In this document: positions 1,297 to 64,000 of the stretch, piece after piece
How the letters are laid out: every line of letters begins with the position of its first letter
Numbering within the stretch: position 1 is the stretch's first letter
Virus record (IMG/VR): IMGVR_UViG_3300027736_000029
Span: 32,001 to 96,000 of that record
From: a virus
Reading direction: 5' to 3' (one strand)
Length of the DNA: 64,000 nucleotides
Notes under the pieces: model-generated
What the model was told of the DNA's origin: nothing
Seen by the model: only the letters and a program-made list of their open reading frames with translations
Database searches by the model: none
Program-made: the position numbers and the translations under genes

Positions 1297-1300
1297 TTCA

Positions 1301-1428: not shown

Positions 1429-1467
1429 ATATATCTTAAGTAAAAGAACTTTCAAAGTAATGTCCCA

Positions 1468-38855: not shown

Positions 38856-41195
38856 TTAACATGGTCCACCGTATGTACCTATCGCATTTATTTCACCATT
38901 ACCAATAACTAAATAAACCGTCGAATTAGTACTGTTTGGATATCTAAATACCACACCATCTGGCGCTAAATTTGTTAAAGAATCATTAGTATAAACCGTT
39001 GCACCATCCACAAATCCTGGTGAAGCATTTGTATATAATGTTGCAAATCCTGTTATTCCATAAACCCCAATTGTACCTCCACTACATATTGTTGTCCCTG
39101 TTAATGTCCTTAATGATATTGAATTAGTTGAAACTGCACTTGATAAAGTGTGATTAACAACTCCTTGGCCTGTTGAGTTATTCACAACAACAGAACAATC
39201 TTTACCTGAAATGGTAGGTTGTGACGTAGATACTAATATGGTTTGAACCAATTGGGTAATACAACCATTACTTCCTGTAGCACCAGTGGTTATTAACAAT
39301 TGTGATGATGAAGTTCCACTAATTACATCACCATGTCCAATTGTTAAGTTATAAACTTGTGATTTAGTAGTTTTAACTTGAGTATATGGTGAACAATTTT
39401 CTCTTGTTGATGACTGTGATGTTGAATTAACAGTTGTTTGTATTAATGAGGTACCATTTTTATTAACGGTAGTAGTGTTGGTAATTATACCACCACCAGG
39501 TCCGTCAACGTCTTGAACCGCATTAACATTTAACTTAAATGATATTGATGTACCAACAGGAAGTGCTGGTGTAACATCAACTTTCCAAGTTGCAACTTCA
39601 TTATCCGCACTATAATTAACATCATTAATTAATTGAACTTTTATATTATATGTTGTTGCGATAGATGATGAACCAATACTTATACCTGAGTTTAAAGTGT
39701 TTCCAACTGAGTCTTGTACAATAACAGTATAATCGTTTGCACATAATCCTTGGAATATATTACTCGTTTGATATGTGTTTCCATTATTAATTGAATAACT
39801 ATAAGGTGGTACTCCATTGTATGTTGCAATAGTTATTGAACCATTACAGTTTTGAGTTCCTGGACATGAACTATCTTGTTTAGTAATCTCAACTGATAAT
39901 GGTGCATATGTCGGACAAGTTCCCTGTACCACATAAACAGTTGCATTCTGACCACCATACATACTCCATCCATTATCAGGTATGTTTGTTTGGTTGGTAC
40001 TAACAGGTGTTCCTGTCGTAAACGTCCATCCAATGACTTCCCATCTTGATTGTAATGAACTCCAAGCGATTGATAGATTTACCGATTGATAAGTTGCCGA
40101 CCACATTGGTTTTCCATTTGAATCGCCACTAGGAACAAACTGAATTGGACCATAAGCAATTGAACCTCTTACATATGTTAAACATAAGTTTGGCCAAACA
40201 GGAGTAGGTGTAATTGTTGGAGTAGGTGTAATTGTTTGTGTTGGTGTTTGTGACGGTGCAAATAAATTACAAATAGTCGTTGAAGAATAATCACCATAAT
40301 AATCCACAACTGTAACTTGATATGAACCTTCAGGTATTCCAACTAATGTTCTAGTTCTCTGACCTCCTGACCAATAATATGAATAAGGACTTGTTCCTCC
40401 TGTTACTTTTAAAGATAATACACCATCATTAGAATATTGATTTGATGGCATTTGAATTGGGTTACATTGAACACCCATATCAAATAATGTTAGAACATCA
40501 CATTCATTCTTCAATGAATAATCTTGTTTAAGTGATGTTGTTGGCGTTTGAGTTGGAGTTGAATTTGGAGTTGTACTTGGTGTTACAGTATTTGTCACCG
40601 TAGGAGTTACTGTCGGTGTTGGTGTTTGAGTTCTTGTAGGTGTCGGTGTTAAACATGAAGTTGTTGCAGGTACATTTAATTTTGTAATACCATTATAAGG
40701 TTGTCCATAATTGAATATTACAACGGTTCCAATTGTAAGGTTAGAACTTACAAAGTTTCCACAACAATCGGTATAATAAACACTTGAAGTTGTTGTAATA
40801 CCACTACCACAAATAATTGGTGTAGTTGTTGGTGTTGGGTTTGGCGTTCTTGTTACTGTTGGAGTAACTGTTTTTGTTGGTGTATTTGTAGGAGTAATGT
40901 TTGGCGTTCTTGTTGGAAATTGAGTTGGAGTTATACTTGGTTCAGGTACGGTTTCACAAGGAGATATTAATATACCATTATAGTTAATATAACCAGTACC
41001 TCCATTTTCAATATACACTTCATTACTAGTTGCGTATGAACCTGACGCTTGACATCCACACACACTATAAAATTGACCAGCGCCAACAAGTGAACTTAAA
41101 AGGGTGGTACCGTCATTACAATCGTAATAATAAAAAATCTGATTTTGACCAGATTCATTCCACACCATCCATCTGGTACAAGTAGTACAAGCCAT
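38856..41195 (-). CDS. Thr/Pro-repeat, Cys-rich protein with SprB-like repeats (putative virion fibre)
   Basis: TPT tracts; VTGGTSPYSYYW...G.Y.VTVVD and NGVPPYSYSI...F.GL...Y.V.V.D repeats. Confidence 0.7.
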   Translation of the reverse strand: MACTTCTRWMVWNESGQNQIFYYYDCNDGTTLLSSLVGAGQFYSVCGCQASGSYATSNEVYIENGGTGYINYNGILISPCETVPEPSITPTQFPTRTPNITPTNTPTKTVTPTVTRTPNPTPTTTPIICGSGITTTSSVYYTDCCGNFVSSNLTIGTVVIFNYGQPYNGITKLNVPATTSCLTPTPTRTQTPTPTVTPTVTNTVTPSTTPNSTPTQTPTTSLKQDYSLKNECDVLTLFDMGVQCNPIQMPSNQYSNDGVLSLKVTGGTSPYSYYWSGGQRTRTLVGIPEGSYQVTVVDYYGDYSSTTICNLFAPSQTPTQTITPTPTITPTPVWPNLCLTYVRGSIAYGPIQFVPSGDSNGKPMWSATYQSVNLSIAWSSLQSRWEVIGWTFTTGTPVSTNQTNIPDNGWSMYGGQNATVYVVQGTCPTYAPLSVEITKQDSSCPGTQNCNGSITIATYNGVPPYSYSINNGNTYQTSNIFQGLCANDYTVIVQDSVGNTLNSGISIGSSSIATTYNIKVQLINDVNYSADNEVATWKVDVTPALPVGTSISFKLNVNAVQDVDGPGGGIITNTTTVNKNGTSLIQTTVNSTSQSSTRENCSPYTQVKTTKSQVYNLTIGHGDVISGTSSSQLLITTGATGSNGCITQLVQTILVSTSQPTISGKDCSVVVNNSTGQGVVNHTLSSAVSTNSISLRTLTGTTICSGGTIGVYGITGFATLYTNASPGFVDGATVYTNDSLTNLAPDGVVFRYPNSTNSTVYLVIGNGEINAIGTYGGPC

Positions 41196-41256
41196 TTACT
41201 TTAAAGTGTTTGTGTTGTTTAGTTTATTTATCATATAAGTATAATCTCTAATATTT

Positions 41257-41904
41257 TTATGGACATAGTTGGAATTCAACAATAGCTCCTTGAGCATTAA
41301 TTTTAACCACATAAAAATTTCCTCCAAAACTCATTTTAATGTACCTATTTCCACCGTTGTATGGATTATATAGAGTATCATTAACAACCGTTTGATAAAC
41401 TATCACACCAACCACAGGTGTCAAATTTGCTTGAGCAATGTATGTGTAATAATTAGTTAATGTGATTGTGTTGGTACAAGTAGTTGCAGATGTTGCAGAT
41501 ACTTGATTACCAATAGGGTGTATTGAAATTACAGGAGTTGTTGTTGGTGTTGGTGTGTTAGTCGGAGTATATGTTTGAGTCGCAGTATTTGTGGGTGTAT
41601 AAGAGGGTGTATTAGTTGGTGTTGATGTGTTTGTTGTAGTAACTGTTGGCGTGTTTGTTGGTGTTGGAGTTAATGTTAATGTTGGAGTTGGTGTAATTGG
41701 AATTACATATCCATCCACACAACTTTGAGTATCAACAATCTTTATAACAATATTCTGTTCATCGTATGGTGGAGGAACACTAAATGTATATGGAAATACA
41801 GATACAGTTGATACGTAAACACAACTTGCACTCATTGAATCACAATAGTAGATTTCAACTGGTGTGTTAGCGGTTACGGATGTTATGGTTACTTGTTGAC
41901 TCAT
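41257..41904 (-). CDS. Thr/Pro-linker two-domain putative virion protein
   Basis: N-domain paralogous to 41918-42142; C-domain shared with neighbours. Confidence 0.7.
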   Translation of the reverse strand: MSQQVTITSVTANTPVEIYYCDSMSASCVYVSTVSVFPYTFSVPPPYDEQNIVIKIVDTQSCVDGYVIPITPTPTLTLTPTPTNTPTVTTTNTSTPTNTPSYTPTNTATQTYTPTNTPTPTTTPVISIHPIGNQVSATSATTCTNTITLTNYYTYIAQANLTPVVGVIVYQTVVNDTLYNPYNGGNRYIKMSFGGNFYVVKINAQGAIVEFQLCP

Positions 41905-41917
41905 TTTAATTTATAGT

Positions 41918-42142
41918 TTAACATGGGACAACATCTTCAATCCCTGTTATTATACATCCATTATTATCAATAACTTTTAACATATATTGAGTTGATGAAT
42001 CGTATGGTGAAGGGATATCAAAAACATACGGAACGGTAGATATAGTTGCCATATAAAAACAACCCGTACCATCTCCCTGACATATATAAATGTCGTATGG
42101 TGTTGCACCTGTTATATTATTTATTGTTACTTGTATTGCCAT
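41918..42142 (-). CDS. Small beta-rich Cys protein
   Basis: VTI..ITG.TP..IY.C.....C.Y..T....PY.F..P.PYD...K..D...C. Confidence 0.7.
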   Translation of the reverse strand: MAIQVTINNITGATPYDIYICQGDGTGCFYMATISTVPYVFDIPSPYDSSTQYMLKVIDNNGCIITGIEDVVPC

Positions 42143-42144
42143 TA

Positions 42145-44835
42145 TTAACAAGAATTAGTATTAACGTTTTGTTTTGCGGTTATGTATCCCGAAGTATTAA
42201 TTTGAACCGCAGTTCCAAGATTTGATGATGTGTTTAATTTTAATACAACCCATAAATTATTACCATTTGTTGGTACTGATGTAAATACATCATAAACTCT
42301 AACACCAACATTAAGTATTGTAGTGTTTGTATAATATGAAGTAAATGCCTTATAATTTAAACAAGCATCTTGTGCTGAAATAGAATTAACTTCATCACCC
42401 ATATATTTAACGGCCTGACCTTGGAAATTTAAACAATCAGTACAAGTATCAAAGACATCAGACACAATTGATTGTGAACCAAAATAATTACCAGTATAAG
42501 TTATTGGTGACACCGTTGGAGGTGCAATATAATCAGTTGTAAACTGTCCAATATATTTCCAACATCTACCTTGATTATCTTGGAATGTTTGGTCAACAGT
42601 TAAATTGGTAAATGATGTAATTTTAATTGTTTGAATAACTTGAGTATTAACCAATTGTTCACCTATTGGCTGACAACTTTCATAAACATAAACCCAATGT
42701 GGTGTAGGTGTCGGTGTTGATGTTGGTGTTTTTGTATTTGTCGGTGTTGATGTTGGTGTTCCTGGTGGTCGACTTGGCGTATTTGTAACTGTTTGCGTTG
42801 GAGTTTGAGTTGGTGTGTGAGTAGGTGTTGACGATGGGAAAACATTACAAGTACCACAACTAGAAGAAATTGCAATAATTTCATCAACATTACAATTAGA
42901 TGAAATCGTATTACTTGTACCACTATAGGTTACACACATAAGACTACCATTAATAATAACTGACATTGTAATACCAGTTGTAACAGGTGTTCCAGAATAA
43001 ATTAAATTATCACTAGTATATAATTGGTCACCTGTTTCACAATCAACCAATATCTTAACGTTAACACACTCGAATAATTCATCCAACATAACAAATGTTG
43101 CTTGTCCTTGAACATCAACAGTTTTTGTTAATGTAATTGTTGGTGTTGTCGTAGGAGTTGGTGTTGTTGAATTATATTGACATACCGAGAATGAAACACC
43201 TGTACCACTACAAGCATAACCTGTAGGTGTTGGTGTTGGGGTCACACCTAAAGATGTAACGTCAAAATCAACATCACCACAATTCACACTTGGGGATGGT
43301 GTTGGCAATGGTTCCCAATCACAATCAAAGTAAGCGTTGAAATCAAATGGTTCACAATTAACAGGACTTGGTGTTGGTGTGGGACAAGGTCCTCCATTAA
43401 AATAATTGGCTGAAATATCAGGACAAGTTGAATAACATGGTGTCGCACCTTCCAATAAACAAGTACCACCTAATGATGTACTTAAACACCAATAACTACC
43501 AGTATAATAAACCACACCAAAATTAATTCCATCACCATTATAATAGAAATTTGAATTGTAAGTACCTGTTTGAGTATAGTTCCCACTATACCCTGATAAA
43601 GATGGTAATGTTGTTCTAAAACAATAAATTGAATCACATGCACCATTACTTGGTGTCGGTGTTGGCGTAAGAGTACTTGTTGGACTAACCGTTGGTGTCT
43701 GCGTCTGAGTTTGAGTAACCGTTGGTGTTGGAGTTGGTGTTGGACATGACGGTGCTCCAGTGAAAGTACTACCCACAGATGGATATAATAACCCTGTTGC
43801 AACATATGGTACAACCGTGGCATATCCATTAAAATAAGGACCACTAATTAAATAAACATCGCCAATAGTTAATGTTCCTGGTACATTTTCATATCTAAAT
43901 TGATTTGATGAATTTCCACATTCAGCAAATAAATATATATCGTAAGGTTCAGTTTGAGTTGGAGTTTGAGTTGGAGTATTTGTTGGTGTTTCAGTATTGG
44001 TAGGAGTTTGAGTATTCGTTACAGTTGGAGTTGGTGTTTCAGTATTAGTAGAAGTTGGTGTTGGTGTTTCGGTATTAGTTGGTGTTTGTGTTGGAGTTTC
44101 ACTTGGAGTGTTTGTCGGTGTTTCAGTATTGGTAGGAGTTTGTGTAGGAGTTTCACTTGGAGTATTTGTTGGTGTTTCAGTATTTGTAGGAGTTACAGTT
44201 GGAGTTTCAGTATTAGTTGGTGTTGGTGTTACTATTTCATTGCAACAATTTATACCTGTTTGGTAATAAGTTGAATTATCTGCGAGTGCTACTGCATCAT
44301 TAACATAATATTGTAAAAAAATATATGTTGGAATTGTTGATGGACTTATACATACCTCATTAGTGTATGTTCCAGCAGTATCATAATACTTATTTGTAAT
44401 GCTGTACTCACCACAAGGAATATAAATTAACTCTACCTTATTATTGAAGAATGGTTCACTAACATTACCAGTAGCATTATCAAGGTCAATTTGAGATATT
44501 GTGATTGTAATATATTCACAATTACAAGTTGGTGTTGGTGTCGGAGTTTTAGTTGGTGTAACAGTATTAGTAGGTGTTATTGTAGGTGTTGGCGTTGGTG
44601 TTGGAGTAGTTGCCTGACATGTCGCACAATCAGGATGTCCAATAGAAACTGTTGCAACAGTATCTATTGGTGATGAACCTACATTACCAATATATTCGTA
44701 GCATCCACCAGGTAATGCGCCCGTAAACGTAAAGGAATAACTAATACCGCCAGTTAAACCAGCTAAGGAACTTATAGAAACTTCATAAGAAACTAATGTA
44801 TCACAAGATATTATTGTTATTACTGGAAATGCCAT
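42145..44835 (-). CDS. Large mucin-like Thr/Pro-repeat, Cys-rich putative virion protein
   Basis: Multiple Cys-bounded modules joined by (TP)n linkers; TATTTATA upstream. Confidence 0.75.
43950..44232 (-). repeat. Coding tandem repeat (TPTNTETPT / TPSETPTQ units)
   Basis: Recurrent ggtgtttcagtatt and ggagtttcacttggagt units. Confidence 0.85.
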
Positions 44836-44932
44836 TTGTACTATAAATAACTCGATAGTGAGTTTTTATACAATTTAAAAATAGAAATATCAAAAGATAA
44901 ATAAACAGGCACTTAAACTATATTTATATTAT

Positions 44933-45106
44933 ATGAAGCTTATTAAGACAATAGAGAAAATAATCAAAGAAGCCGAGGAATTATATGTTAATGCCTTGGA
45001 GTCTGTTGTTGATGAAAAAGAACTGCAACGTCTTGAAAAGAACTATCAAGATAGTCTTAAATTGATGAAGACCTTTAGTCAGATTAATAAAACTAAATCA
45101 GATTAA
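44933..45106 (+). CDS. Small helical protein (57 aa)
   Basis: MKLIKTIEKIIKEAEE...; ATG 4 nt after TATTTATA. Confidence 0.7.
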   Translation: MKLIKTIEKIIKEAEELYVNALESVVDEKELQRLEKNYQDSLKLMKTFSQINKTKSD

Positions 45107-45283
45107 ATTCTTATTTTAATCTTGGTCTTTTTTATAAAATCCGTTATTCTCAGGTTGATATTATTCATCCAATAACTTTGGCACCTTTGGTACCATAATA
45201 ATAATTGTTGTAATTAGAATTTAACGACAATAAAAACCAAACTTTCATTTATTTTTATCCAATAAAAACTATATTATTTTGAT

Positions 45284-45712
45284 ATGGGTAGTATAAAAAA
45301 CGTACAATTTGGTGAAAATGTTTTTGTTGTTGAACCAACAAACCTTTATGGTTGTAAGATTGGTAACAATGTTAAGATTGGTCCATTTGTTGAAATTCAA
45401 CGAGATTCAGAAATTGGGAATGATTCTATTATTAGTTCACACTCTTTCATACCTTCAGGTGTTAAAATAGGTAACAATGTTTTTATCGGTCACGGAGTTA
45501 TGTTTACCAATGACACATTTGACTCAGATTTAATAGAAAATTGGGAAATGAAAAAAACAATTATTGGTGACCGCGTTAGAATTGGTTCCAACTCAACAAT
45601 TTTACCAGTCAAGATTGGTAATAACGTAATAATAGGTGCGGGTTCAGTCGTTACAAAAGACATACCTGATAATGTAACAGTTTATGGAAATCCGGCAAGA
45701 ATTAAATCATAA
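45284..45712 (+). CDS. Hexapeptide-repeat sugar N-acyltransferase (WbpD/FdtC-like)
   Basis: Left-handed beta-helix repeats, FTND, GAGSVVTKD..GNPAR. Confidence 0.9.
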   Translation: MGSIKNVQFGENVFVVEPTNLYGCKIGNNVKIGPFVEIQRDSEIGNDSIISSHSFIPSGVKIGNNVFIGHGVMFTNDTFDSDLIENWEMKKTIIGDRVRIGSNSTILPVKIGNNVIIGAGSVVTKDIPDNVTVYGNPARIKS

Positions 45713-46526
45713 AATTTGCCTAATTGGATATGGTTATTGGGGTAAAATACTCCATAAAAATTTATTATCATTAGGGTATAATGATATCACAATTGTTGAT
45801 GTTGTTTTAGACAACTTCAATCTATTGGATGATAGTTATTCACATTATTTTGTTGTAACACCATTTACAACACACCACGAAATATTATTGAAATTATCTG
45901 AATTTAAGAACAAAAGAATTTGGTGTGAAAAACCTTTGGTTAACACATATAAAGAATCAACCGAAATATATTCATTAATGGAACAAAATAACAATATGTT
46001 ATTTGTTGATTGGGTTTATACGTTCAATCCATGTGTTGATAAAATCAGAAAAATTGTGTCTAAGAAAAAAATTAAACAAGTCATTCTTAACAGAACCAAT
46101 GACGGTCCAAAAAGATTTGACACAAGTTCAATCCACGATTTATCATCACATGATTTATCCATTTTATATCACATATTTGGTAGAACAAATTTTGATTTTA
46201 CTTGGAATGAATTTTCAGTTAAATCAAATGAAGACTTTGGTTCCAATATTAGTTGGTATTATAAAAGTGGATTGCAAGTTATAATTAATTCATCTTGGCA
46301 ACATAAAACAAAAAACAGGGTATCATTATTCATTACTGAAGATGATGAAGTTATCGTTTTTGATGATGTAAAAAAAGTAATCATTACTAATAATGGTGTT
46401 GAAGATTTTTCAGACTCTCCATCCCCAATCCATATTGGTATGAGACACTTCTTCAGTGACAATAATTTTGATTCAAATAAAGAAATAACACTTAAAATAA
46501 CAAAAAACTTAGAACATGCAATTTAA
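45684..46526 (+). CDS. Gfo/Idh/MocA oxidoreductase (sugar 3-dehydrogenase-like)
   Basis: IGYGYWG, CEKP and DL.SHD motifs. Confidence 0.88.
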   Translation: MEIRQELNHKICLIGYGYWGKILHKNLLSLGYNDITIVDVVLDNFNLLDDSYSHYFVVTPFTTHHEILLKLSEFKNKRIWCEKPLVNTYKESTEIYSLMEQNNNMLFVDWVYTFNPCVDKIRKIVSKKKIKQVILNRTNDGPKRFDTSSIHDLSSHDLSILYHIFGRTNFDFTWNEFSVKSNEDFGSNISWYYKSGLQVIINSSWQHKTKNRVSLFITEDDEVIVFDDVKKVIITNNGVEDFSDSPSPIHIGMRHFFSDNNFDSNKEITLKITKNLEHAI

Positions 46527-47625: not shown

Positions 47626-47627
47626 CC

Positions 47628-48344: not shown

Positions 48345-48359
48345 CTTATAATTCACATT

Positions 48360-50553: not shown

Positions 50554-50554
50554 A

Positions 50555-53363: not shown

Positions 53364-53366
53364 TAC

Positions 53367-55310: not shown

Positions 55311-55328
55311 AATGAAAAATATAATTGT

Positions 55329-56360
55329 ATGTCAATTGATAGTGAAAAAACTTGCGTATTAATTGGTGCTCATCCTCAGAATTCAAATGATAGTGCTTTA
55401 CTATCATTAACAATTGAAGGTATTAAAAGACAAGGTTATAAAATATGTTTAGTATCTCATTCACCCGTTAATGTCGATATACAAAAATCCGTTAATTATT
55501 ATGTTTATTCAGATGAAAATGAAATTTTAACATTACCATCGTACTCAGATTCTGTAATTTTCTCAAGTTATCCTAATTATTATTACCAATCTAATTTAGG
55601 TAATAGATTAGGTACCACACATTACGCTTCGTTAATTAACTTAAAAAACGGATTAAATTTACTTAAAGAAAAAGGTTTTACACATTTCATATACCACAAT
55701 TACGATTATTTTATAAATCAAAAAGACCATACAGTATTAGAAACACACTTAAAAGATTTAACAAACTTAGACTATTGGTTTATGAATGATGCTCATGACC
55801 GTAATGGTTTATTTCCAGTTTTATCAATTTTTGCTGGCAAAATATCTTATTTTATTGAGTTATTTAGTGTTGCCAATTCTCCTGAAAATTATTTAAAATA
55901 TTGTGGTAATAATTATATTTTAGAATTTTTTGTAAGACAACGAATAAAAGACTGCGGTGGTTTTGGTATCATTGAAAAATTTAGAGCTTCAGATATTTTT
56001 ACAAGTAAGTGGGCCGGTATTGCAGACACTAAAGGATTACACCTACCAGATTATGATGTTGTAAACGCATATGTTGATTTAGTGAGAGATTATGATAATG
56101 AAAACCACATTTACGGTATTTTACCAATGTGTAATTCATCACATAATGTTGTTATTAATTTATATAAAAATGATGTGAAAATATTGTCAAACACCTTAAA
56201 ATTAGGTAGTATGTATTGGTGGTGGTATAAAACAACCGATAATGACAAATGGAAAATTGAATGTTATTTATCTGAAAGAATAATTAGTTCAGTTGAAAAA
56301 CTTGGTAGTGAAATATTATCAAATAAACCATCATTTTTAAAATTTAAGAAAAGTGAATAA
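55329..56360 (+). CDS. Putative GT-A-like protein, paralogue 1
   Basis: Family pattern ending GFTHF..NYD. Confidence 0.5.
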   Translation: MSIDSEKTCVLIGAHPQNSNDSALLSLTIEGIKRQGYKICLVSHSPVNVDIQKSVNYYVYSDENEILTLPSYSDSVIFSSYPNYYYQSNLGNRLGTTHYASLINLKNGLNLLKEKGFTHFIYHNYDYFINQKDHTVLETHLKDLTNLDYWFMNDAHDRNGLFPVLSIFAGKISYFIELFSVANSPENYLKYCGNNYILEFFVRQRIKDCGGFGIIEKFRASDIFTSKWAGIADTKGLHLPDYDVVNAYVDLVRDYDNENHIYGILPMCNSSHNVVINLYKNDVKILSNTLKLGSMYWWWYKTTDNDKWKIECYLSERIISSVEKLGSEILSNKPSFLKFKKSE

Positions 56361-57297
56361 CAGGGTAGTATTAATAAACTCATTCTGTGATAAACAGAAT
56401 AAAATTGATGTTTTAGAAAAAAACATAAAACTAATTAAATCTAATAATTTAGATGTTATATTATTATCACCCATAAATTTACCTGAGTATATTATTGATT
56501 TATGTAATGTTTTTATTCAGACAAAAGAAAATCCTGTTACAAAATGGCCAGGAAAAACAATGTTTGAATATTGGGCTTATTGTATGGATAATAAATTTTA
56601 CGAACTTCATTTAGGTAAATCAGATTATGGATGGGCGTCATTATACCAAATTAAAAAATTAAGTCAAATTGGGTTAACATATGATTATGAATATTATTTT
56701 CACATAATTTATGATACAGTAATTGACGAACATTTAATTGACACATTCTTAACTAACGAAAAATGTATATTATTCCCAAGTAATAAAGGTTTTGAAGTTG
56801 GTGGTTTTTTTATGGGTTTTAATAAAAATGTATTAAGTTTATTTCAAGAAATAATAACTAAGGATTTATATTATAAAAACTATGATGTTGCCGAAACTTT
56901 ACTATCTAACATATCAAAAGTCTTACCTTGTAAAATTGAAAAGTATGATACTAAGGATGAAATATATTTTTTTGAAAACTTAGATTTATTTAATTATTCT
57001 ATTTATGTTGATTTTAAGTTTTTCTTACATAAAAGAACATTGGCCGATGATGATACTGCTAAAATATTTTTTTACGATTTAAATGGTTCTTATGATGTAA
57101 CTGTTGAGGTAAATAACATTACTATTGATACGGTTATTAGTAATCATTATTTAATGGACCTAAATCTTCATCATGATGATGTATTTAGTTTATCAATAAC
57201 ATATAATGGTAATACACACAACTTAATCCATCTGTATAATAACATATCTCATAATAAAATTATAATAACTGATGTTGATGATTGTAATAATCTTTAA
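56353..57297 (+). CDS. Putative GT-A-like protein, paralogue 2
   Basis: Same N-terminal pattern; YG.AS...Y.Y.F..IYD. Confidence 0.5.
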   Translation: MNNRVVLINSFCDKQNKIDVLEKNIKLIKSNNLDVILLSPINLPEYIIDLCNVFIQTKENPVTKWPGKTMFEYWAYCMDNKFYELHLGKSDYGWASLYQIKKLSQIGLTYDYEYYFHIIYDTVIDEHLIDTFLTNEKCILFPSNKGFEVGGFFMGFNKNVLSLFQEIITKDLYYKNYDVAETLLSNISKVLPCKIEKYDTKDEIYFFENLDLFNYSIYVDFKFFLHKRTLADDDTAKIFFYDLNGSYDVTVEVNNITIDTVISNHYLMDLNLHHDDVFSLSITYNGNTHNLIHLYNNISHNKIIITDVDDCNNL

Positions 57298-57326
57298 TTT
57301 AATCAATTGTTTGTTATTATTTATTT

Positions 57327-58025
57327 ATGGATTTTAATTACTACTGCAACCAAAATAACACAGATAAAGGAGATTTATCACCACTTGGTAATCGATACGC
57401 CAATTTTTATGAAAATTGGTTTTCAAAACTAAAAAACTCAGCAACTAATATTTGTGAAATCGGTATTGATTCTGGAGGTTCTCTAAAGTCTTATTATGAT
57501 TATTTTCAAAACGCTCAAATTTTTGGATTAGATATAAATGACAAATCATTATACAATAATGATAGAATTAAGACATTTATTTTAGACCAAAGTAAATCTC
57601 AAGATTTAGATAGTTTTGTTAATTATTGTAAATCTAATAACATCCAATTTGACTTTATATTAGATGATGGTTCACATGATGTTGAACACCAACAATTAAC
57701 TTTTGGTAAATTATTTGAATTAGTTAAACCAAACGGTTTTTATATCATTGAAGATTTGGGTAGTAGTTACTTCACATTAGGTAATAATCTTTATGGTTAT
57801 ATTCAAACTCAAACTAAAATTAACAATAACACGATTAAATTTTTAAATCAAAGACCATTTAGTAGTCTTTGGATTTCAGAAGAAAACTTAATACAAATCA
57901 ATAACTTAGTAGATTCTGTAACCATATTTGATACATATAACAAAGATTTACCATATACTACTGATTTTACATGTGAAAATAATTACCCTATTAGGTCAAT
58001 TACTTCAGTTATTAAGAAAAAATAA
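57327..58025 (+). CDS. Sugar O-methyltransferase-like class I SAM MTase
   Basis: TDK, EIGI..GGSL, GLDI, DQS, DDGSH, YIIEDL motifs. Confidence 0.85.
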   Translation: MDFNYYCNQNNTDKGDLSPLGNRYANFYENWFSKLKNSATNICEIGIDSGGSLKSYYDYFQNAQIFGLDINDKSLYNNDRIKTFILDQSKSQDLDSFVNYCKSNNIQFDFILDDGSHDVEHQQLTFGKLFELVKPNGFYIIEDLGSSYFTLGNNLYGYIQTQTKINNNTIKFLNQRPFSSLWISEENLIQINNLVDSVTIFDTYNKDLPYTTDFTCENNYPIRSITSVIKKK

Positions 58026-58027
58026 TT

Positions 58028-59044
58028 ATGAAACTTTTAACCATATTAGATTGTTACATCCATAACAACACAATACTCAATAAATTAGATTCGTTTATTG
58101 ACAAATTAAAATCAAAAAATTCTGATATTTTATTAATTTCAAATACAACTATTCCAATAGAAATTCAACAAAAAGTAGATTATTGTTTATACGATTCCAA
58201 TAATCATTTTTTTTCAAGTGATTGGGAATTTTCTGAATTGTTTGTAGTTAAGACTTTAATATCTGGCGGTAATTGTCAAGATGTTTTTCCAAAATTACAA
58301 CCACATGGTTTATCTGTGATGATTAATATTTTTAACGCAATTACTATTGGTAAAAGTTTAGGTTATACCCATTTTGAAAAATTAGAATATGACCCATTAT
58401 TCTCTGACGAGTCATTTAACAATTTATCTTTATTACCTTCAAGATGTTTAGATGAAAATAAAAAAGGTTTGTACTTACTAAATAATATAACAAACCCTCC
58501 TGATGTATCCTTTCATTATTTTTTCTCTGAAATTGATTATTTTTTATCAAATGTTAAAAACATAAAATATGAAAATGATTATCGTGATTTTATTAATCAA
58601 ACAAATGGTAATAATTTCTTCATCAATGTTGAAAGATTTTTATATCAAAATTTAGAAATTTCTGGTTTAGAAAATTTTGTATTAATTAACGAAGAAGAAC
58701 GAGATTTGAAATTTCCAAACACGTATTGGAATTCTGAAGTTTCACCAAATAACATACCTAAAAAATATAATAGCTGTACATCTCGTTTGTATTTGCCAAT
58801 GGATACAAATGAGTATGTCGTATTATTATCAATGAATTATGATAATAAACATAAAGAAAGAATTATTAAATGTTATTTTGATGATGGTTTTATTTACACA
58901 TCAACACATCATATAACCAGTAAAGGTAGTTATACTTATGACAGTATAACCCCCAACATTCAGTTTATTGAAGTATTTGAGAATGGTGAGTTACTTTATA
59001 CTGAACATATCTCAGAAGTTAATAATCTAATACAAATTAGTTAA
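58028..59044 (+). CDS. Putative GT-A-like protein, paralogue 3
   Basis: HGLSV.IN...LGYTHF..LEYD. Confidence 0.5.
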   Translation: MKLLTILDCYIHNNTILNKLDSFIDKLKSKNSDILLISNTTIPIEIQQKVDYCLYDSNNHFFSSDWEFSELFVVKTLISGGNCQDVFPKLQPHGLSVMINIFNAITIGKSLGYTHFEKLEYDPLFSDESFNNLSLLPSRCLDENKKGLYLLNNITNPPDVSFHYFFSEIDYFLSNVKNIKYENDYRDFINQTNGNNFFINVERFLYQNLEISGLENFVLINEEERDLKFPNTYWNSEVSPNNIPKKYNSCTSRLYLPMDTNEYVVLLSMNYDNKHKERIIKCYFDDGFIYTSTHHITSKGSYTYDSITPNIQFIEVFENGELLYTEHISEVNNLIQIS

Positions 59045-59046
59045 AT

Positions 59047-60177
59047 ATGAAATTCACATTTGTTACATCATTTTATAAAACAGAGAATTATATTAAAGAA
59101 TTATATGATTCAATAAAATCACAAACCTATACCAATTGGGAATGGATTGTAACTGACGATTTTTCTGATGATAATACAAAACAAATTTTGTTAGACATTT
59201 GTTCTAATGATAAAAAAGTTAGATATATAGAACAATCCAAGAAAAAAGAAATGTTTTACAATCCACAATGGTTTTGTAAAGAATCTGAAATTATTGTTGA
59301 ACTTGGAAGTGATGATGTTATATCCCCCAAAGCTCTTGAGGTATATCTATATTATTTCACCAAATTCCCTGAAGTTATTATGATATCTTGTAGGTCCAAT
59401 TCTTTTTTGGACGATGGTAGTTGGAATAACTTTGAGGTTCGTAATTTCAAGAATTGTAAAAATCTATTGTGTGGGAATATCTTATATCTTAAAGCATGGA
59501 GAAATAAGATTACCGATGTTGATTACAACCCTGGTGATTGGATGGAGTTCTTCTATAATGATTTGGTATTCAATGCTCATTTAGAAGAGGAAGGTAAAGT
59601 ATTAATCTTACCAAGAGCTTTATACAAATACAGGTATAGACCTGAATCCATCAGCAGAAAATTATACACAATGGAAAACTTGGACAAGATGATGGATGAG
59701 AATAGAAACATTGTTTCAATGGTTAATGAACGTAGAGGTAACGAGATTGAAACGATTGACAGGTATTTTGAGGACATTGTTGATTTATCATTACCATTTA
59801 TGGATATGGAATTTTCCATGATTGATACTCAGAAAAGGATTGGGTATTTTACAACGTCAATTAACGATAAAAAATTTGGTTTAATTAAGGAGTTATTATT
59901 TGACCAAGACGTACATTTAAACAAATTTGACCGTGAGTATGATTGGGGATTTTATTATATTAAAACCATGACCGATGTTGTTCTTATGACGAATACAATA
60001 TCCAAAATTTTTGAATTAAACCCAAACTGCAATGTTAGAATTGCCGTGGACAATATTGAAAACACTGAATTAAGAGAAAAACTTTATAATGAAATTTCTG
60101 ATTTTTTATTACAAAAGTATTATTATTTCACTAACTGTTTTGAATTCTGTCTTTTTACAGTAGGAATACCATCATGA
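59047..60177 (+). CDS. GT2 glycosyltransferase
   Basis: S...QTY.NWEWIVTDDFS.D, SDD, LY.YR motifs. Confidence 0.9.
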   Translation: MKFTFVTSFYKTENYIKELYDSIKSQTYTNWEWIVTDDFSDDNTKQILLDICSNDKKVRYIEQSKKKEMFYNPQWFCKESEIIVELGSDDVISPKALEVYLYYFTKFPEVIMISCRSNSFLDDGSWNNFEVRNFKNCKNLLCGNILYLKAWRNKITDVDYNPGDWMEFFYNDLVFNAHLEEEGKVLILPRALYKYRYRPESISRKLYTMENLDKMMDENRNIVSMVNERRGNEIETIDRYFEDIVDLSLPFMDMEFSMIDTQKRIGYFTTSINDKKFGLIKELLFDQDVHLNKFDREYDWGFYYIKTMTDVVLMTNTISKIFELNPNCNVRIAVDNIENTELREKLYNEISDFLLQKYYYFTNCFEFCLFTVGIPS

Positions 60178-61205
60178 AAAAAATTACAATTATAGATTGC
60201 TTTATCAGTTCTGATAAAGTCTTAGAAAAATTAGAAACAATGATTTCTCAACTTAAAAATAATGGTGAGGATGTCTTTCTGTTATCTAATACAAACATAC
60301 CACCACATATACAAGAATTAACAAACTATTCTTTTTACGATAAAAACAATCGTTTATTTACCGATGATTATGAAGGTGTTAGTTTGTTGGACATTTGGAA
60401 AGGTTTTGATAAAGGTGGTATTCATGAACTTGAACCAGCGTTTCAAAGACATGGTTTGTCCGTTATTATTAATTTATTTTTTACATTAGAATTGTGTAAA
60501 AATTTGGGATACACCCATTTTCAAAGGTTGGAAGTTGATGCGTTACTTGGAGAAAAATCATTGGAGTTCATGAAACAAATACCCCAAACTTGTTTGGAAC
60601 AAAACAAAAAAGGTTGGTTTTATGTTAACAAATATGATGATGGTAAAGAAGCATCTTTTCACTACATGTTTTGTGAAATTGATTATTTCCTAAACACCTC
60701 CCCCAAGATTAGTTGTGAAAAAGATTATCAAGATTACATCTTTAATAAATGGGGTGTTAAAAAGTTTACCCCTGTAGAGACGTTTATTTTTGATACTCTT
60801 AAATTAGAAAATAATACTGATATTATAACAAGAAATGGTAAGGACAATATGAGTTCTGATTTTGAGGGCACATATTTTAATAGTGAAACTAGTGAGGCTA
60901 ACTTATCACCAAAGTATCGAGGTTGTTCAACAAGAATTTATAACTGTATCAAATGTGAAAATGAAACGGATAAAATCATTTTAACTTTTAACTATAAAGA
61001 TAAAATGGTTAAAAGAGATGTTAAAATATTTTACACTGATGGTAGTATTGATAATATAGTTCATGTTGTTGAATCTAAAGGATATTTTACTTATACTACA
61101 CATTCAAAAGAAATTGAAAAGATTGAAGTTTATGAAAATGACAAATTACTATACGATGAATATAACAAAAACATTTATAGTTACGTTGAATTTACTATAT
61201 TTTAA
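60174..61205 (+). CDS. Putative GT-A-like protein, paralogue 4 (closest to 58028)
   Basis: HGLSV.IN...LGYTHF..LEVD; SFHY.F.EIDYFL shared with paralogue 3. Confidence 0.5.
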   Translation: MKKITIIDCFISSDKVLEKLETMISQLKNNGEDVFLLSNTNIPPHIQELTNYSFYDKNNRLFTDDYEGVSLLDIWKGFDKGGIHELEPAFQRHGLSVIINLFFTLELCKNLGYTHFQRLEVDALLGEKSLEFMKQIPQTCLEQNKKGWFYVNKYDDGKEASFHYMFCEIDYFLNTSPKISCEKDYQDYIFNKWGVKKFTPVETFIFDTLKLENNTDIITRNGKDNMSSDFEGTYFNSETSEANLSPKYRGCSTRIYNCIKCENETDKIILTFNYKDKMVKRDVKIFYTDGSIDNIVHVVESKGYFTYTTHSKEIEKIEVYENDKLLYDEYNKNIYSYVEFTIF

Positions 61206-61211
61206 TAAATT

Positions 61212-63314
61212 ATGAAAATTACTCAGGTAACACCAGGTTTAATATCAATACCTCCAAAAGGTTGGGGTGCGATAGAAAAGATTATTTGGAACTATAAGAT
61301 ACAGTTTGAAAAAATGGGTCATGAGTGTGGTATTCAATATCTTGATGATGTTGATACCACATCTGACATTATTCACATCCACGTTGCCAATTTGGCAATT
61401 ATGGCTCAAGAAAGAGGTATACCGTATATCTTTTCATTACACGACCATCACGTTGTTCGTCATGGTAAAGATTCTCAAACTTATAAAGAAAACCTTGATG
61501 CCATTAAAGGGTCAATTATTTCTTTTACACACGCTGAAAATTTGTGTAAGTATTTTGATGAGACGGATAAATTGTTTTATTTGAGTCATGGTGTTGATAC
61601 TGAGTTATATAAAAACGACTCTCTTATTAAACCTTATACAAAATTATTGTGTGTTGCCAACAATGGATATGCTGATAATCAAAGTGTGGATAGAAAAGGT
61701 TTTAGATATGCTATTGAAGCCGCTCGTGAGTTGAATCATCCGATTACTATTGTTGGTCCAAAAAACAATGAGAATTTCTTTAATGTTAATAAAGATTTAT
61801 TGGATTATGATAAATTACACATCATTGATACAAACCCAAATGAAGAAGAGTTAATTAAATTGTATAATGAACATACAATATTTTTACATCCATCTGAATT
61901 AGAAGCGGGTCATCCAAATTTAACATTACTTGAGGCGATTTCATGCGGTCTTCCAATTGTTGGAACTTATGATGGTACCAAAGAACTTAATAGTATTTAC
62001 AAGATTGATAGGTCAACAAATTCTGTGGTAACAGGTATTAAACACGTTACATCAAATATTGAAACTTTTGTTAACCACACTCAAAGTGAAAAATTAAAAT
62101 ATGATTGGTCGGTTATTTGTAAAAGATTGTTAAACATATATAATTCAGTAAACGATATTAAAAAAGAATATAACTCTGAATTAACCAAACAACTTTACAT
62201 TGATGTGTATGAAAATACCAATAAAATCGAACATGAAATATTAAATGATTATTCGTTTAATATCAATTTTATTAAAGGTGCTTACATAGAAGTTTTAGGT
62301 TCTGCAACAAGACATTTTGATGTTGAGATTTGGAATGACAATCATTTGGATTATAAAAATAAACTCAGTTCTGGTATGTTTGCCAAAACAAATAAACAAT
62401 ATTTCCGTAATTGGAATATGAAAGTTTATGATGGTGATATGCCTGTTTTTGATTATAAACTTAACTTATCAGGTAAACGAGTTTATATCGCAGTTGATTC
62501 AGGTTCTTTGGGTGACAACATTGCATGGATGCCATATATTGATGAATTTAGAAAAAGACATAATTGTCATGTTATTACTTCAACATTCAAGAATGATTTG
62601 TTCAAAAATGTATATCCAAAAATTGAATTTGTAACACCTGGAAGTACAGTAAATGATTTATTTGGAATGTACACTTTGGGTTGGTTTTATGATTTGAATA
62701 AAGAACCAACATTACCAAACATTGTTGGTTTACAAGAACATGCTAGTTTAATACTTGGTTTAGACCACAAAGAAATTAGAACTAAAATTGATTTTACACC
62801 ATCAGAAAGACCTTATGAAGAAAAATATGTGGTTATTGCAACTAGTTCAACAGCACAATGTAAATTTTGGAATAATGAAACAGGTTGGGTTGAATTGGTT
62901 GATTACTTAAAATCAAAAGGTTATAGGGTAATCAACATATCAAAAGAAGGTAACAATGTTCACAACGCTGAAATGATTAATGATACTTCAATGTATAATA
63001 CCCAAAACGTAATTTACCATAGTGAATTTATGATTGGATTATCAAGTGGTTTATCTTGGTTATCATGGGCTTTAGGAAAACACGTTGTTATGTTATCAAA
63101 CTTCACAAGTGCTGACCATGAATTTGTCGGTGATTGTACAAGAATCGTTAATTACGATGTATGTAATGGTTGTTGGAATAAAGCTATGTTTAAGTTTGAT
63201 AAAGGTGATTGGAATTGGTGTCCTGAACACAAAAATACTTCAAGACAACACGAGTGTCATAAATTAATAACGTCAGAAATGGTAATAAATCAAATACAAC
63301 ATTTAATAAAATGA
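61212..63314 (+). CDS. GT4 glycosyltransferase fused to TibC/Aah-type O-glycosyltransferase
   Basis: IPP.GWGAIE, RKG, EAG...LLEA..CG; then SLGDNIAW, STAQCKFWNN..GW, GLSSGLSWL.WA, CNGCWN..WCP.H..ECHK. Confidence 0.9.
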   Translation: MKITQVTPGLISIPPKGWGAIEKIIWNYKIQFEKMGHECGIQYLDDVDTTSDIIHIHVANLAIMAQERGIPYIFSLHDHHVVRHGKDSQTYKENLDAIKGSIISFTHAENLCKYFDETDKLFYLSHGVDTELYKNDSLIKPYTKLLCVANNGYADNQSVDRKGFRYAIEAARELNHPITIVGPKNNENFFNVNKDLLDYDKLHIIDTNPNEEELIKLYNEHTIFLHPSELEAGHPNLTLLEAISCGLPIVGTYDGTKELNSIYKIDRSTNSVVTGIKHVTSNIETFVNHTQSEKLKYDWSVICKRLLNIYNSVNDIKKEYNSELTKQLYIDVYENTNKIEHEILNDYSFNINFIKGAYIEVLGSATRHFDVEIWNDNHLDYKNKLSSGMFAKTNKQYFRNWNMKVYDGDMPVFDYKLNLSGKRVYIAVDSGSLGDNIAWMPYIDEFRKRHNCHVITSTFKNDLFKNVYPKIEFVTPGSTVNDLFGMYTLGWFYDLNKEPTLPNIVGLQEHASLILGLDHKEIRTKIDFTPSERPYEEKYVVIATSSTAQCKFWNNETGWVELVDYLKSKGYRVINISKEGNNVHNAEMINDTSMYNTQNVIYHSEFMIGLSSGLSWLSWALGKHVVMLSNFTSADHEFVGDCTRIVNYDVCNGCWNKAMFKFDKGDWNWCPEHKNTSRQHECHKLITSEMVINQIQHLIK

Positions 63315-63688
63315 ATATAGAAGTATCACACGGAGAGATTGTCGATAAGTTAACAATTCTCCAAATTAAAAAAGAAAATATAAAAGACCCAAGTAAGTTG
63401 GATAATATTGTAAAGGAGTACAATTATTTATTATCAATCGTTGAGAATGATTTAGGTATTTTAACGTCATCTCCTGAATATTTAGAACTATTATCAATTA
63501 ATAAGGACCTTTGGGTTATTGAAGATGATATTAGAGAAAAAGAAAGGCAAAAACAATTTGACGATGATTTCGTTAAACTTGCTCGTGATGTTTACTACAC
63601 CAACGATGTTCGTGCTAAAATAAAAAAAGAAATAAACCTGAAATATTCATCAGGGTTTATTGAAGAGAAAAGTTATTCTCAATATTAA
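63311..63688 (+). CDS. DUF6165-like protein typical of glycosylation loci
   Basis: S.GE..DKLTIL.IK...LW.IED.IR..AR.VY..ND.R..IK..IN...EEK.Y. Confidence 0.75.
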   Translation: MNIEVSHGEIVDKLTILQIKKENIKDPSKLDNIVKEYNYLLSIVENDLGILTSSPEYLELLSINKDLWVIEDDIREKERQKQFDDDFVKLARDVYYTNDVRAKIKKEINLKYSSGFIEEKSYSQY

Positions 63689-63954
63689 ATACTTGTAGGA
63701 TATCCTGTAATTGTCATTCCTCTATCGGAAGCAATTGCTTGTATAATTACCTTATCATCAGTTCCCCAAGTTTGTAAGACTGATGGTGATAATTTATATG
63801 TTTCACCAAATACATATTCTCCTGAAGAATTCAAGAGGTCATATTTGACATAACATTCTGAAGCCATTAAATCATATCTACTGATACTTGCTCTAAGATA
63901 TGAGGCTTGTTTAGTTAAAATTGATACCGGTGTAATTGATGCTAATAATGCCAT
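63685..63954 (-). CDS. Hypothetical late protein
   Basis: ATG 4 nt after TATTTATA (63959-63966). Confidence 0.7.
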   Translation of the reverse strand: MALLASITPVSILTKQASYLRASISRYDLMASECYVKYDLLNSSGEYVFGETYKLSPSVLQTWGTDDKVIIQAIASDRGMTITGYPTSI

Positions 63955-64000
63955 ATGTTATAAATATATTAAAAGTTGTTTATGTTACGTATATGTCATA

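Follow-up and report, generated by a model that had tools for sequence, protein, structure and literature searches.

We suggest that this large, uncultured phage encodes a cytoplasmic system for protein O-glycosylation, in which a giant Gly-Ser/Thr fibre is probably the main acceptor and a group of Thr/Pro-rich proteins a possible second one. We infer every sugar of the system as well as the choice of acceptor, the latter from gene neighbourhood. The window is a stretch of 64,000 nucleotides (positions 32,001 to 96,000 of IMG/VR virus record IMGVR_UViG_3300027736_000029), and the record itself is 104 kb long and 36% complete. The ORF list of the window places an island of 19 tightly packed genes on the plus strand at 45284-63688 (18,405 bp), in agreement with the 18.4-kb same-strand cluster described in a first-pass annotation of this DNA.

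Two products of the island carry complete BAHT domains, as that annotation had proposed from an LGD motif and four cysteines. One is a predicted stand-alone O-glycosyltransferase of the TibC/Aah type (49306-50553, plus strand, likely ATG start at 49357) and the other is a GT4-BAHT fusion (61212-63314, plus strand) with the BAHT domain at residues 354-697. They scored 246.2 and 307.8 bits, respectively, against the NCBIfam model TIGR04414, for which the curated cut-off is 200 bits, and sequence comparison with TibC (PDB 4RAP/4RB4) gave E-values of 2e-40 and, over TibC residues 65-383, 3e-58. These comparisons, which the annotation had called for, support both domains as true members of the family. 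In TibC, Asp110 of the LGD motif is the catalytic base, Lys230 and Thr226 are at the beta-phosphate, Trp305 contacts the heptose, Arg286 contacts N1 of the adenine and gives specificity for an ADP-activated sugar, Cys339, 342, 358 and 370 form the iron-finger, and a beta-hairpin thumb (about residues 262-273) builds the dodecameric ring (PMC4358343). The Asp, Lys230, Trp305 and the four Cys were near-invariant across 75 BAHT sequences, and Asp110 was present in both window copies and in 58/58 members of one clade (SH-aLRT 99). The stand-alone enzyme keeps Asp110, Lys230, Arg286, Trp305 and the four Cys, with Ser at position 226, and the fusion keeps Asp110, Thr226, Lys230, Trp305 and the four Cys, with Arg286 replaced by Thr. 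The iron-finger Cys align in both copies and, like the LGD motif, are invariant in the alignment; iron binding is predicted.

Position 286 is Arg in 17/17 BAHTs outside the clade and in only 10/58 inside it, where Thr was found in 40/58. In addition, both window copies and most of the clade have a deletion of 9-10 residues at the thumb, where 6 of 15 aligned positions are filled. Because the clade is without the thumb and mostly without the Arg that contacts adenine, its donor sugar may not be ADP-heptose, and because the thumb builds the TibC dodecamer, the handling of substrates would have to differ. The annotation had noted the absence of a classical acceptor and of ADP-heptose synthesis genes, and this held for the 104-kb, 36%-complete record, which gave no match to the autotransporter strand-loop-strand repeat (TIGR04415) and contained no SIS or PfkB heptose-pathway genes. 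A 139-aa nucleotidyltransferase outside the window in the same record is ambiguous between TagD and RfaE domain II. We did not find RfaE domain I in 41 genomes sampled from the genus of a MAG titled 'uncultured Flavobacterium sp.' (L168), which may not be the host of the phage. Classical BAHT plasmid loci do show an adjoining AIDA-type gene.

The BAHT domain has relatives in at least 386 stretches of IMG/VR contigs, and a single-protein scan of IMG/VR for a second BAHT paralog gave no locus. The GT4-BAHT fusion recurs in the 735-kb phage LR756501 at 47% identity, and relatives carry the domain in fusions with GT4, FkbM, pyruvyl-transferase and DXD-transferase domains. Such recurrent fusions fit one priming step followed by extension. 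The BAHT fragment noticed earlier is a 215-aa protein (50555-51202, plus strand) that aligns with the beta-barrel and early N-lobe of the fusion (residues 350-473, 25% identity, E 6e-7) and has 'SYEE' in place of 'SLGD', without the catalytic LGD. It has homologues in 19 related loci, which suggests that the gene has been retained and is not a pseudogene.

Among the other genes of the island, all on the plus strand, Pfam and NCBIfam identified the GT2, GT4 and tailoring enzymes that had been claimed. The genes at 45284-47625 form a three-gene amino-sugar pathway with a hexapeptide N-acetyltransferase, a 3-dehydrogenase-like oxidoreductase of the GFO/IDH/MocA family (top NCBIfam match, UDP-GlcNAc 3-dehydrogenase) and a DegT aminotransferase; judged from the families, the product may be a 3-acetamido sugar of the UDP-GlcNAc3NAc type. 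A 238-aa protein (47628-48344) gave no match in Pfam, NCBIfam or PHROG and recurs in related islands, with homologues in 21/88 related loci. The related GT9-like enzyme of the annotation was recovered at 48360-49367 (Pfam Glyco_transf_9, E 6e-15; RfaF structure 1PSW, E 6.5e-7); it is a glycosyltransferase without the BAHT beta-barrel and is 22% identical to the BAHT domain. It is followed, beyond the stand-alone BAHT and the fragment, by a NodU/CmcH-type O-carbamoyltransferase (51199-52785; Pfam Carbam_trans_C, E 2e-52, and Carbam_trans_N, E 3e-32), a 193-aa protein (52782-53363) with no match in NCBIfam, PHROG or Pfam, and a GT4 glycosyltransferase fused to an FkbM methyltransferase (53367-55310; Pfam), which has homologues in 84/88 related loci. 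Further along are a probable SAM-dependent methyltransferase (57327-58025; Pfam Methyltransf_31, E 6e-4, below the cut-off), a GT2 glycosyltransferase (59047-60177; Pfam Glycos_transf_2, E 7e-18) and a DUF6165 protein (63311-63688; Pfam, E 5e-10). The last is the most conserved companion of the BAHT fusion, with homologues that are 54-87% identical and directly 3' of the BAHT gene in 30 related loci.

Four paralogous genes of the island, at 55329, 56353, 58028 and 60174, had been missed in the earlier annotation. The first two (55329-57297; 343 and 314 aa) are weakly paralogous to those at 58028 and 60174 and probably have a GT-A or nucleotide-sugar fold. For the 338-aa protein of 58028-59044, a model was predicted (pLDDT 63, pTM 0.62), and the best PDB matches listed by Foldseek were all GT-A glycosyltransferases or sugar nucleotidyltransferases (E 1e-4 to 1e-3, TM 0.3-0.5), which gives modest support to a GT-A / nucleotidyltransferase-like fold. 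The 343-aa protein of 60174-61205 is 38% identical to it (E 4e-77). In the ESM Atlas, the GT-A-like paralog and the middle of the 896-aa protein described below matched viral clusters only, without names. TM-like segments were absent from the 19 island proteins and the flanking proteins, and all island products are predicted to be soluble.

At the right edge of the window is the tail end of a convergent fibre operon on the minus strand (63685-64000), which includes an 89-aa gene and the first part of one for 229 aa. The giant Gly-Ser/Thr fibre gene is outside the window, at 64675-71622 in window numbering, convergent with the island, and its ORF has at least 2315 aa. It begins 675 bases beyond the window end and had been missed in the annotation. 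The ORF is composed of 29% Gly, 38% Ser, 16% Thr and 0.2% Pro, and its last 400 residues match Collagen (E 2e-26) and Peptidase_S74, an intramolecular chaperone (E 9e-15), in Pfam. This kind of chaperone domain was first described in a phage endosialidase tailspike, and because the ORF ends in one, we regard the gene as a genuine fibre gene. It is the only gene with Gly-Ser/Thr tracts in the 104-kb record and it adjoins the island.

The pairing of enzyme and fibre extends to other genomes. When dereplicated BAHT rows were counted, with up to 10 kb on each side in the fetched locus, Gly-Ser/Thr repeat genes were found near BAHT genes in 30/58 cases in the clade and in 0/17 outside it (Fisher p 4e-5). 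Among loci of 18 kb or more, 24/34 had such neighbours, and in the lineage of the window phage 9/16 Gly-Ser/Thr genes were less than 1 kb from the BAHT gene. Members of the clade come from low-GC phages, the 735-kb phage LR756501, the cultured Microcystis phage Mel-JY01, which carries the enzyme-fibre pair too, a phage group with a GC of 0.45, and gammaproteobacterial chromosomes. In the Arenicellales-type chromosomes the BAHT gene has small lipoproteins with GSS/GTS repeats on its flanks, and the clade also includes a Pseudobdellovibrionaceae collagen-repeat protein. In the BAHT-bearing phage LR756504, no Gly-Ser/Thr repeat gene was found within 20 kb, and in a complete 326-kb relative the strongest match to the fibre was about 46 kb from the BAHT gene. 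A control set anchored on an unrelated gene gave only 4 loci, and complete related genomes served as background. Much of the neighbourhood evidence comes from related phages, and conserved order may thus reflect descent rather than function. Our literature search found no paper on the pairing of a BAHT enzyme with a Gly-Ser/Thr fibre. The annotation had placed the glycan on the phage's own proteins with the Thr/Pro proteins as main acceptor; O-glycosylation is still the best reading, but the clade counts link the enzyme more strongly to the fibre, and the fibre is the best-supported candidate for the main acceptor.

The left flank contains, on the minus strand, the four divergent Cys-rich genes that had been described as being without signal peptides and, in three cases, rich in Thr/Pro, and the description was accurate. 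The gene at 42145-44835, divergent from the island, encodes a modular protein of 896 aa with numerous Thr/Pro linkers (36 Cys; 230 residues in Thr/Pro tracts). The 215-aa protein of 41257-41904 (5 Cys; 65 residues) consists of an N-terminal beta module, a (Thr-x)n linker of about 55 residues and a C-terminal domain, and the 779-aa modular protein of 38856-41195 (23 Cys; 117 residues) has Thr/Pro linkers and SprB repeats (Pfam, E 7e-8). Between these, a 77-aa protein without a Thr/Pro tract (41918-42151; 4 Cys) is a paralog of the N-terminal module of the 215-aa protein (39% identity over 64 aa, E 1e-13), a kinship that had been overlooked; its gene is confined to loci with a Thr/Pro-tract gene (7/7 vs 7/24, p 0.001). 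None of the four has a hydrophobic N-terminus or TM-like segment. The PDB sequence search with the 779-aa protein and a 734-aa neighbour gave nothing, and the neighbour has more than 3,000 relatives, without a functional clue. We rejected an enrichment of the T4-type late promoter TATAAATA in the window (19 sites vs 13 expected); one copy of TATAAATA is about 90 nt upstream of 42145-44835.

It is possible that these proteins (38856-44835), as mucin-like components of the virion, are themselves the main acceptors, but we consider this rather unlikely. The 104-kb record has no Thr/Pro-tract genes other than these three, all on the left flank of the island, with which they share a 448-bp control region. 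A Thr/Pro, Cys-rich orthologue is still divergent from the BAHT gene in two relatives (L017 and L024) in which the island has shrunk to one or two genes, and a Thr/Pro-tract gene was present in 16/34 long related loci. Among four orthologues of 41257-41904, alternate positions of the linker are invariantly Thr and the residues between them vary. However, the adjacency is confined to the lineage of the window phage, and distant BAHT loci had a threshold-level tract at most, in 2/60 cases; the co-occurrence of BAHT and Thr/Pro genes expected in the annotation therefore held within this lineage but not beyond it. Matches to the Thr/Pro protein, mostly to its linker part, are scattered over complete related genomes, and in 3/5 of these the globular part of the 896-aa protein had its best match about 90 kb from the BAHT gene. 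As for their proposed place in the virion, the Thr/Pro proteins and the 734-aa neighbour had no match among deposited phages, the predicted fold of 41257-41904 (pLDDT 42) was too poor for a search, and the one indication was a weak PHROG match of 38856-41195 to 'virion structural protein' (E 8e-6). Glycosylation of the capsid, also suggested earlier, found no support in the analysis. No link was found between the GT9-like gene and the Thr/Pro genes (p 0.12), and nothing convincing emerged for separate enzyme-acceptor pairs of the GT9-like protein, BAHT fragment, DUF6165 or others with Thr/Pro or Gly-Ser/Thr neighbours.

The island might instead remodel a glycan of the host envelope (LPS, capsule or another polysaccharide) during infection, for example for blocking superinfection, which we regard as improbable. 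Loci for O-antigen and capsule typically contain GT2, GT4 and GT9 families, amino-sugar enzymes, and carbamoyl- and methyltransferases such as those of the island, and glycosyltransferases beside the tail-fibre genes of marine myophages have usually been read as host-envelope modifiers (PMC7029224). However, Pfam, NCBIfam and the TM scan found no membrane protein, flippase, polymerase, ligase, ABC exporter or lipid-carrier priming transferase in the island, the family of two of its domains is known only for glycosylating proteins (PMC4358343), and the association with repeat genes across phages and bacteria would be left unexplained. There is a similarly small chance that the BAHTs glycosylate host proteins, or envelope proteins exported by the phage, and that common descent alone has kept the repeat genes beside them. 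Shared gene order in related phages does not count as independent evidence, and the repeat proteins beside BAHT in Arenicellales are exported lipoproteins, not fibres. Nevertheless, the Gly-Ser/Thr repeat is common to five deep branches of the clade with unrelated genome contexts, which is hard to explain unless the repeat is the target. We considered DNA glycosylation but discarded it, since the BAHT family is specific for proteins and the island would build a tailored glycan of several sugars.

In the protein O-glycosylation system that we favour, the BAHT domains (49357-50553 and the C-half of 61212-63314) would act before assembly and add the first sugar to Ser/Thr hydroxyls in repeat-rich proteins of the phage itself. 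The fused GT4, the GT9-like enzyme, the GT4, the GT2 and the four GT-A-fold paralogs may then lengthen the glycan, and the amino-sugar trio, carbamoyltransferase and methyltransferases may supply and decorate unusual sugars. Gene neighbourhoods point to the proline-free, collagen-like (Gly-Ser/Thr-Ser/Thr)n tail fibre on the convergent side as the main acceptor and to the Thr/Pro-linker, Cys-rich proteins on the divergent side as a possible second. The fibre lacks both proline and charge, and a dense coat of glycans would make it more stable or stiffer, or would shield it. To our knowledge, the substrates of the characterised BAHTs are folded beta-helix repeats and not collagen-like or Thr/Pro tracts. 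As a tentative extension, the thumb-less subfamily of large phages and some bacteria could be a dedicated (Gly-Ser/Thr-Ser/Thr)n O-glycosyltransferase, with a donor other than ADP-heptose in most phage members, and its glycan coat could take the place of hydroxyproline and charge pairs in proline-free fibres of micrometre length; in the window phage the Thr/Pro linkers would be coated too, by a general system with a complex, carbamoylated and methylated amino-sugar glycan.

We know of BAHT enzymes only as virulence-linked modifiers of proteobacterial autotransporter adhesins, and of only a few cases of glycosylated phage virions. If phage BAHTs coat collagen-like fibres, the family gains a new class of acceptor and probably a new donor, and many glycosyltransferase genes beside the tail-fibre genes of aquatic phages, which have been read as modifiers of host O-antigen, need to be read again. 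This would explain the stability of a fibre with no proline and no charge, and it would suggest that abundant environmental phages use glycans for shielding or host recognition.

Mycobacteriophages encode glycosyltransferases that modify capsid and tail-tube proteins, and the system proposed here is similar in that phage enzymes would O-glycosylate their own structural proteins in the cytoplasm. The mycobacteriophage systems rely on one or two GT-A/GT-B enzymes, with Ser/Thr tails at the C-terminus of capsid proteins as acceptors, whereas here there is a 19-gene island with putative BAHT priming enzymes and candidate acceptors of the fibre type. The likeness to TibC-TibA and Aah-AIDA-I of E. 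coli comprises TIGR04414, the catalytic Asp, the beta-phosphate Lys and Thr/Ser, the Trp and the four iron-finger Cys (PMC4358343). The N-terminal beta-barrel region also aligns with that of TibC, and in both cases an enzyme that is soluble and cytoplasmic (here by prediction) is encoded beside a repeat-rich Ser/Thr acceptor or candidate acceptor. Unlike the TibC/Aah loci, the phage locus has neither an autotransporter nor a strand-loop-strand repeat, its neighbours are a collagen-like Gly-Ser/Thr fibre and Thr/Pro-linker proteins, the enzyme is phage-encoded, and the domain is often fused to other glycan enzymes. The phage copies also differ from TibC in the deletion of the thumb needed for the dodecamer and, in the fused copy and 40/58 clade members, in the Thr that replaces the adenine-contacting Arg286.

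BclA of the Bacillus anthracis/cereus exosporium is a heavily glycosylated, collagen-like Gly-X-Thr protein without hydroxyproline, and its anthrose-rhamnose glycan, with methylated and acylated amino-deoxy sugars from a dedicated operon, is thought to aid hydration and stability of the helix (PMC8968730, PMC6222408). Unlike those of the phage fibre, the BclA repeats are proline-rich (GPT), and the protein belongs to a bacterial spore surface. As far as we know, the enzymes that glycosylate BclA are unrelated to BAHT. In Mimivirus and Megavirinae, a virus-encoded pathway for rare amino sugars of bacterial type and glycosyltransferases decorate the virion fibrils, and virus-encoded collagen-like proteins of giant viruses are also glycosylated (PMC9614988, PMC10117803). 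In contrast to the phage in the window, these are eukaryotic viruses that use other enzyme families and modify collagen on hydroxylysine.

The island (45284-63688, plus strand) contains 19 ORFs that overlap or are separated by tiny gaps. ORF calls and Pfam/NCBIfam assignments confirmed the tightly packed, same-strand glycan cluster described in the first-pass annotation. The assigned products are a hexapeptide acetyltransferase, a GFO/IDH/MocA oxidoreductase (best named match UDP-GlcNAc 3-dehydrogenase), a DegT aminotransferase, a GT9-like enzyme, a NodU-type carbamoyltransferase, a GT4-FkbM fusion, a weakly matched methyltransferase, a GT2, a fusion of GT4 with BAHT (the TibC/Aah-type protein glycosyltransferase family, TIGR04414) and DUF6165. 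Four genes without family assignment (55329, 56353, 58028 and 60174) are mutual paralogs, and for the structure model of one of them (pLDDT 63) the best PDB matches listed are all GT-A glycosyltransferases or sugar nucleotidyltransferases, with modest scores. TM-like segments were absent from all island products. DUF6165 (125 aa, 63311-63688) lies directly 3' of the BAHT fusion; no other companion gene of the fusion is as well conserved, and its homologues in 30 related loci are 54-87% identical.

The two BAHT domains previously regarded as complete, one stand-alone (49306/49357-50553) and one in the GT4 fusion (61212-63314), were borne out by TIGR04414 scores of 246 and 308 bits (curated cut-off 200) and by matches to TibC structures (E 2e-40 and 3e-58). 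The supposed BAHT fragment is a 215-aa gene after the first BAHT, which aligns as a distant copy to the beta-barrel and early N-lobe and lacks the catalytic LGD; its recurrence in 19 related loci suggests that the gene has been retained. We aligned 75 BAHT domains dereplicated at 85% identity, took residue roles from the TibC structure paper (PMC4358343), and obtained by a quick tree search a clade of 58 rows (SH-aLRT 99). Asp110, the catalytic residue of TibC (PMC4358343), is essentially invariant, as are Thr/Ser226, Lys230, Trp305 and the four iron-finger cysteines. The position of Arg286, which touches adenine and is said to fix the ADP donor (PMC4358343), is Arg in 17/17 domains outside the clade but in only 10 of the 58 inside; it is Thr in the fused BAHT and Arg in the stand-alone one. 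Both copies and most of the clade have lost the beta-hairpin thumb, which in TibC links dimers into a dodecamer (PMC4358343). By these features the two BAHTs truly belong to the family but to a structurally distinct branch of it, and they may differ from TibC in oligomeric state and donor.

Convergent with the island, a fibre ORF starts 675 bases beyond the window's end; it spans at least 2315 aa, with 29% Gly, 38% Ser, 16% Thr and 0.2% Pro. It is the only gene with Gly-Ser/Thr tracts in the record. Its C-terminus carries Collagen repeats and a Peptidase_S74 chaperone domain, a type first described from a phage endosialidase tailspike. The ORF upstream of it (103619-104266 of the record; 71619-72266 in window numbering) has Gln/His/Val/Leu repeats resembling out-of-frame Gly-X-Y coding DNA, so further fibre sequence may lie upstream, set off by a frame change or assembly slip; the record ends there.

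BAHT relatives were found in at least 386 IMG/VR stretches, 44 GTDB genome contigs and four deposited phage records. By simple ORF calls of our own and a threshold of at least 8 (Gly-Ser/Thr-Ser/Thr)n triplets, a repeat gene was present within the fetched locus in 30 of the 58 clade rows versus none of the 17 outside (Fisher p 4e-5, related phages not being independent samples) and in 24/34 clade loci of at least 18 kb, counts that are lower bounds because many loci labelled as lacking such a gene are incomplete. The rows outside include classical Aah/TibC genes adjoining AIDA-type autotransporters. Five deep branches within the clade show the pairing: the low-GC group of this phage, with 9/16 repeat genes less than 1 kb from the BAHT gene; the 735-kb phage LR756501; Microcystis phage Mel-JY01 with a Pseudobdellovibrionaceae MAG; a phage group with a GC of 0.45; and Arenicellales-type gammaproteobacterial chromosomes, where a 377-aa BAHT lies between two or three small lipoproteins with GSS/GTS repeats and poly-Asp tails. 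As background, five complete or near-complete relatives (215-326 kb) have about one to three Gly-Ser/Thr repeat loci each; in four of them one locus is less than 10 kb from the BAHT gene, and the fifth has its strongest match to this fibre about 46 kb away from BAHT.

On the Arenicellales chromosome OZ244198.1 (locus L138, 8510-12580), a DUF6502 gene is followed by BAHT, as in loci L134, L136 and L139, and each of the two or three flanking lipoproteins also has a lipobox. This set looks like a compact bacterial enzyme-acceptor unit without other glycan genes. In relatives, recurrent fusions join BAHT to GT4, FkbM, pyruvyl-transferase and DXD-transferase domains. Single proteins seem to combine whole glycan pathways in locus L024 (5303-11047, plus strand; 1914 aa with FkbM, DXD transferase, methyltransferase, pyruvyl-transferase, GT4 and a C-terminal BAHT) and in Mel-JY01 (L008, 4750-8430, plus strand; a 1227-aa GT4...BAHT fusion with BAHT at the end). 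Just upstream of this Mel-JY01 fusion and a 'structural protein' is an 805-aa open frame (PP395634.1, 635-3052, plus strand) that has an unbroken run of 149 Gly-X-Y triplets and matches Pfam Collagen. GenBank annotates instead a 519-aa CDS (739-2298, minus strand) and a short CDS (2519-3052, plus strand), so the collagen-like gene is probably misannotated.

Four minus-strand genes (38856-44835), divergent from the island, encode Cys-rich products without signal-like N-termini, three with long Thr/Pro tracts, and composition and an N-terminus check agreed with the earlier description of them. These three are the record's only Thr/Pro-tract genes and lie opposite the fibre side of the island. 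The suggested co-occurrence of BAHT and Thr/Pro genes held in part: a Thr/Pro-tract gene was present in 16/34 long loci, and a Thr/Pro Cys-rich gene is still divergent from BAHT in L017 and L024, whose islands have shrunk to one or two genes. However, the link is limited to this phage lineage, and sequences matching the Thr/Pro protein, for the most part its linker, are dispersed across complete related genomes; for the globular part of the 896-aa protein, the best match lies about 90 kb away from BAHT in 3/5 genomes. The 448-bp divergent control region between the 896-aa gene and the island (44836-45283) contains a 57-codon plus-strand ORF (~44934-45105) and TATAAATA motifs on each strand, including one about 90 nt before the start of the 896-aa gene; the motif is not enriched across the window as a whole.

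Beyond the family membership of the BAHTs, we infer all steps of the pathway. The BAHT domains would prime Ser/Thr of the fibre repeats, perhaps also the Thr/Pro linkers, and the remaining transferases would extend a glycan containing an acetamido sugar with carbamoyl and methyl groups. To our knowledge, the family is known only for protein glycosylation in the cytoplasm. This specificity, the soluble products, the lack of lipid-carrier or export machinery among the island's family assignments and the recurrent transferase fusions point to BAHT as the priming enzyme. Phage glycosyltransferase genes of this kind are usually read as remodelling the host envelope glycan (PMC7029224), a reading we disfavour because the island has no membrane component and because of the association of BAHT with repeat genes.

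It is possible that the BAHTs act on other protein targets. The Thr/Pro proteins, the acceptor proposed in the first-pass annotation, are linked to BAHT more weakly than the Gly-Ser/Thr fibre, but are a possible second target: four orthologues of the 215-aa Thr/Pro protein all keep Thr at every second position of the linker and vary at the residues between, one point that would favour such an acceptor.

As for the donor of the BAHTs, no heptose-pathway genes were found within the 104-kb record. A small cluster about 20 kb before the window's start (9813-12808 of the record) encodes a metallophosphoesterase, a GT2, a nucleotidyltransferase and a 337-aa protein without assignment; the nucleotidyltransferase (139 aa) could be either glycerol-3-phosphate cytidylyltransferase or RfaE domain II. 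RfaE domain I is present in the BAHT-bearing Arenicellales and Pseudobdellovibrionaceae genomes, and was not found in 41 sampled genomes from the genus to which the MAG titled 'uncultured Flavobacterium sp.' (L168) belongs. This would fit a non-heptose donor for the phage BAHTs if that genus includes the host.

The IMG/VR record (104,266 bases, ~30% GC), of which the window covers 32001-96000, is 36% complete by CheckV, which would give a phage genome of roughly 300 kb. The left part of the window contains replication and recombination genes for an SbcC-like nuclease, a primase and a RuvC-like resolvase. The host is likely a member of Bacteroidota, since the primase's nearest cultured relative is from a Flavobacterium myophage (only 30% identity), MAG bins holding related BAHT contigs are Sediminibacterium, Chitinophaga, Bacteroides and Flavobacterium, and one protein flanking the island has SprB repeats (Pfam). 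A 734-aa protein (36609-38813) has more than 3,000 metagenome homologues, many at 90% identity or above, so the phage lineage is environmentally abundant; the protein has no match among families, the PDB or deposited phages. L017 keeps the order of this gene with the primase, RuvC-like and Thr/Pro genes.

Mycobacteriophages already provide examples of glycosylated phage virions, and our literature search found no paper joining TibC-type enzymes with phages or collagen-like proteins. In giant viruses, fibril glycosylation is encoded by the virus (PMC9614988, PMC10117803). The proposed glycosylation of the fibre has a precedent in BclA, a Thr-rich, hydroxyproline-free collagen-like protein that is glycosylated and whose sugars are thought to aid the hydration network of the helix (PMC8968730).
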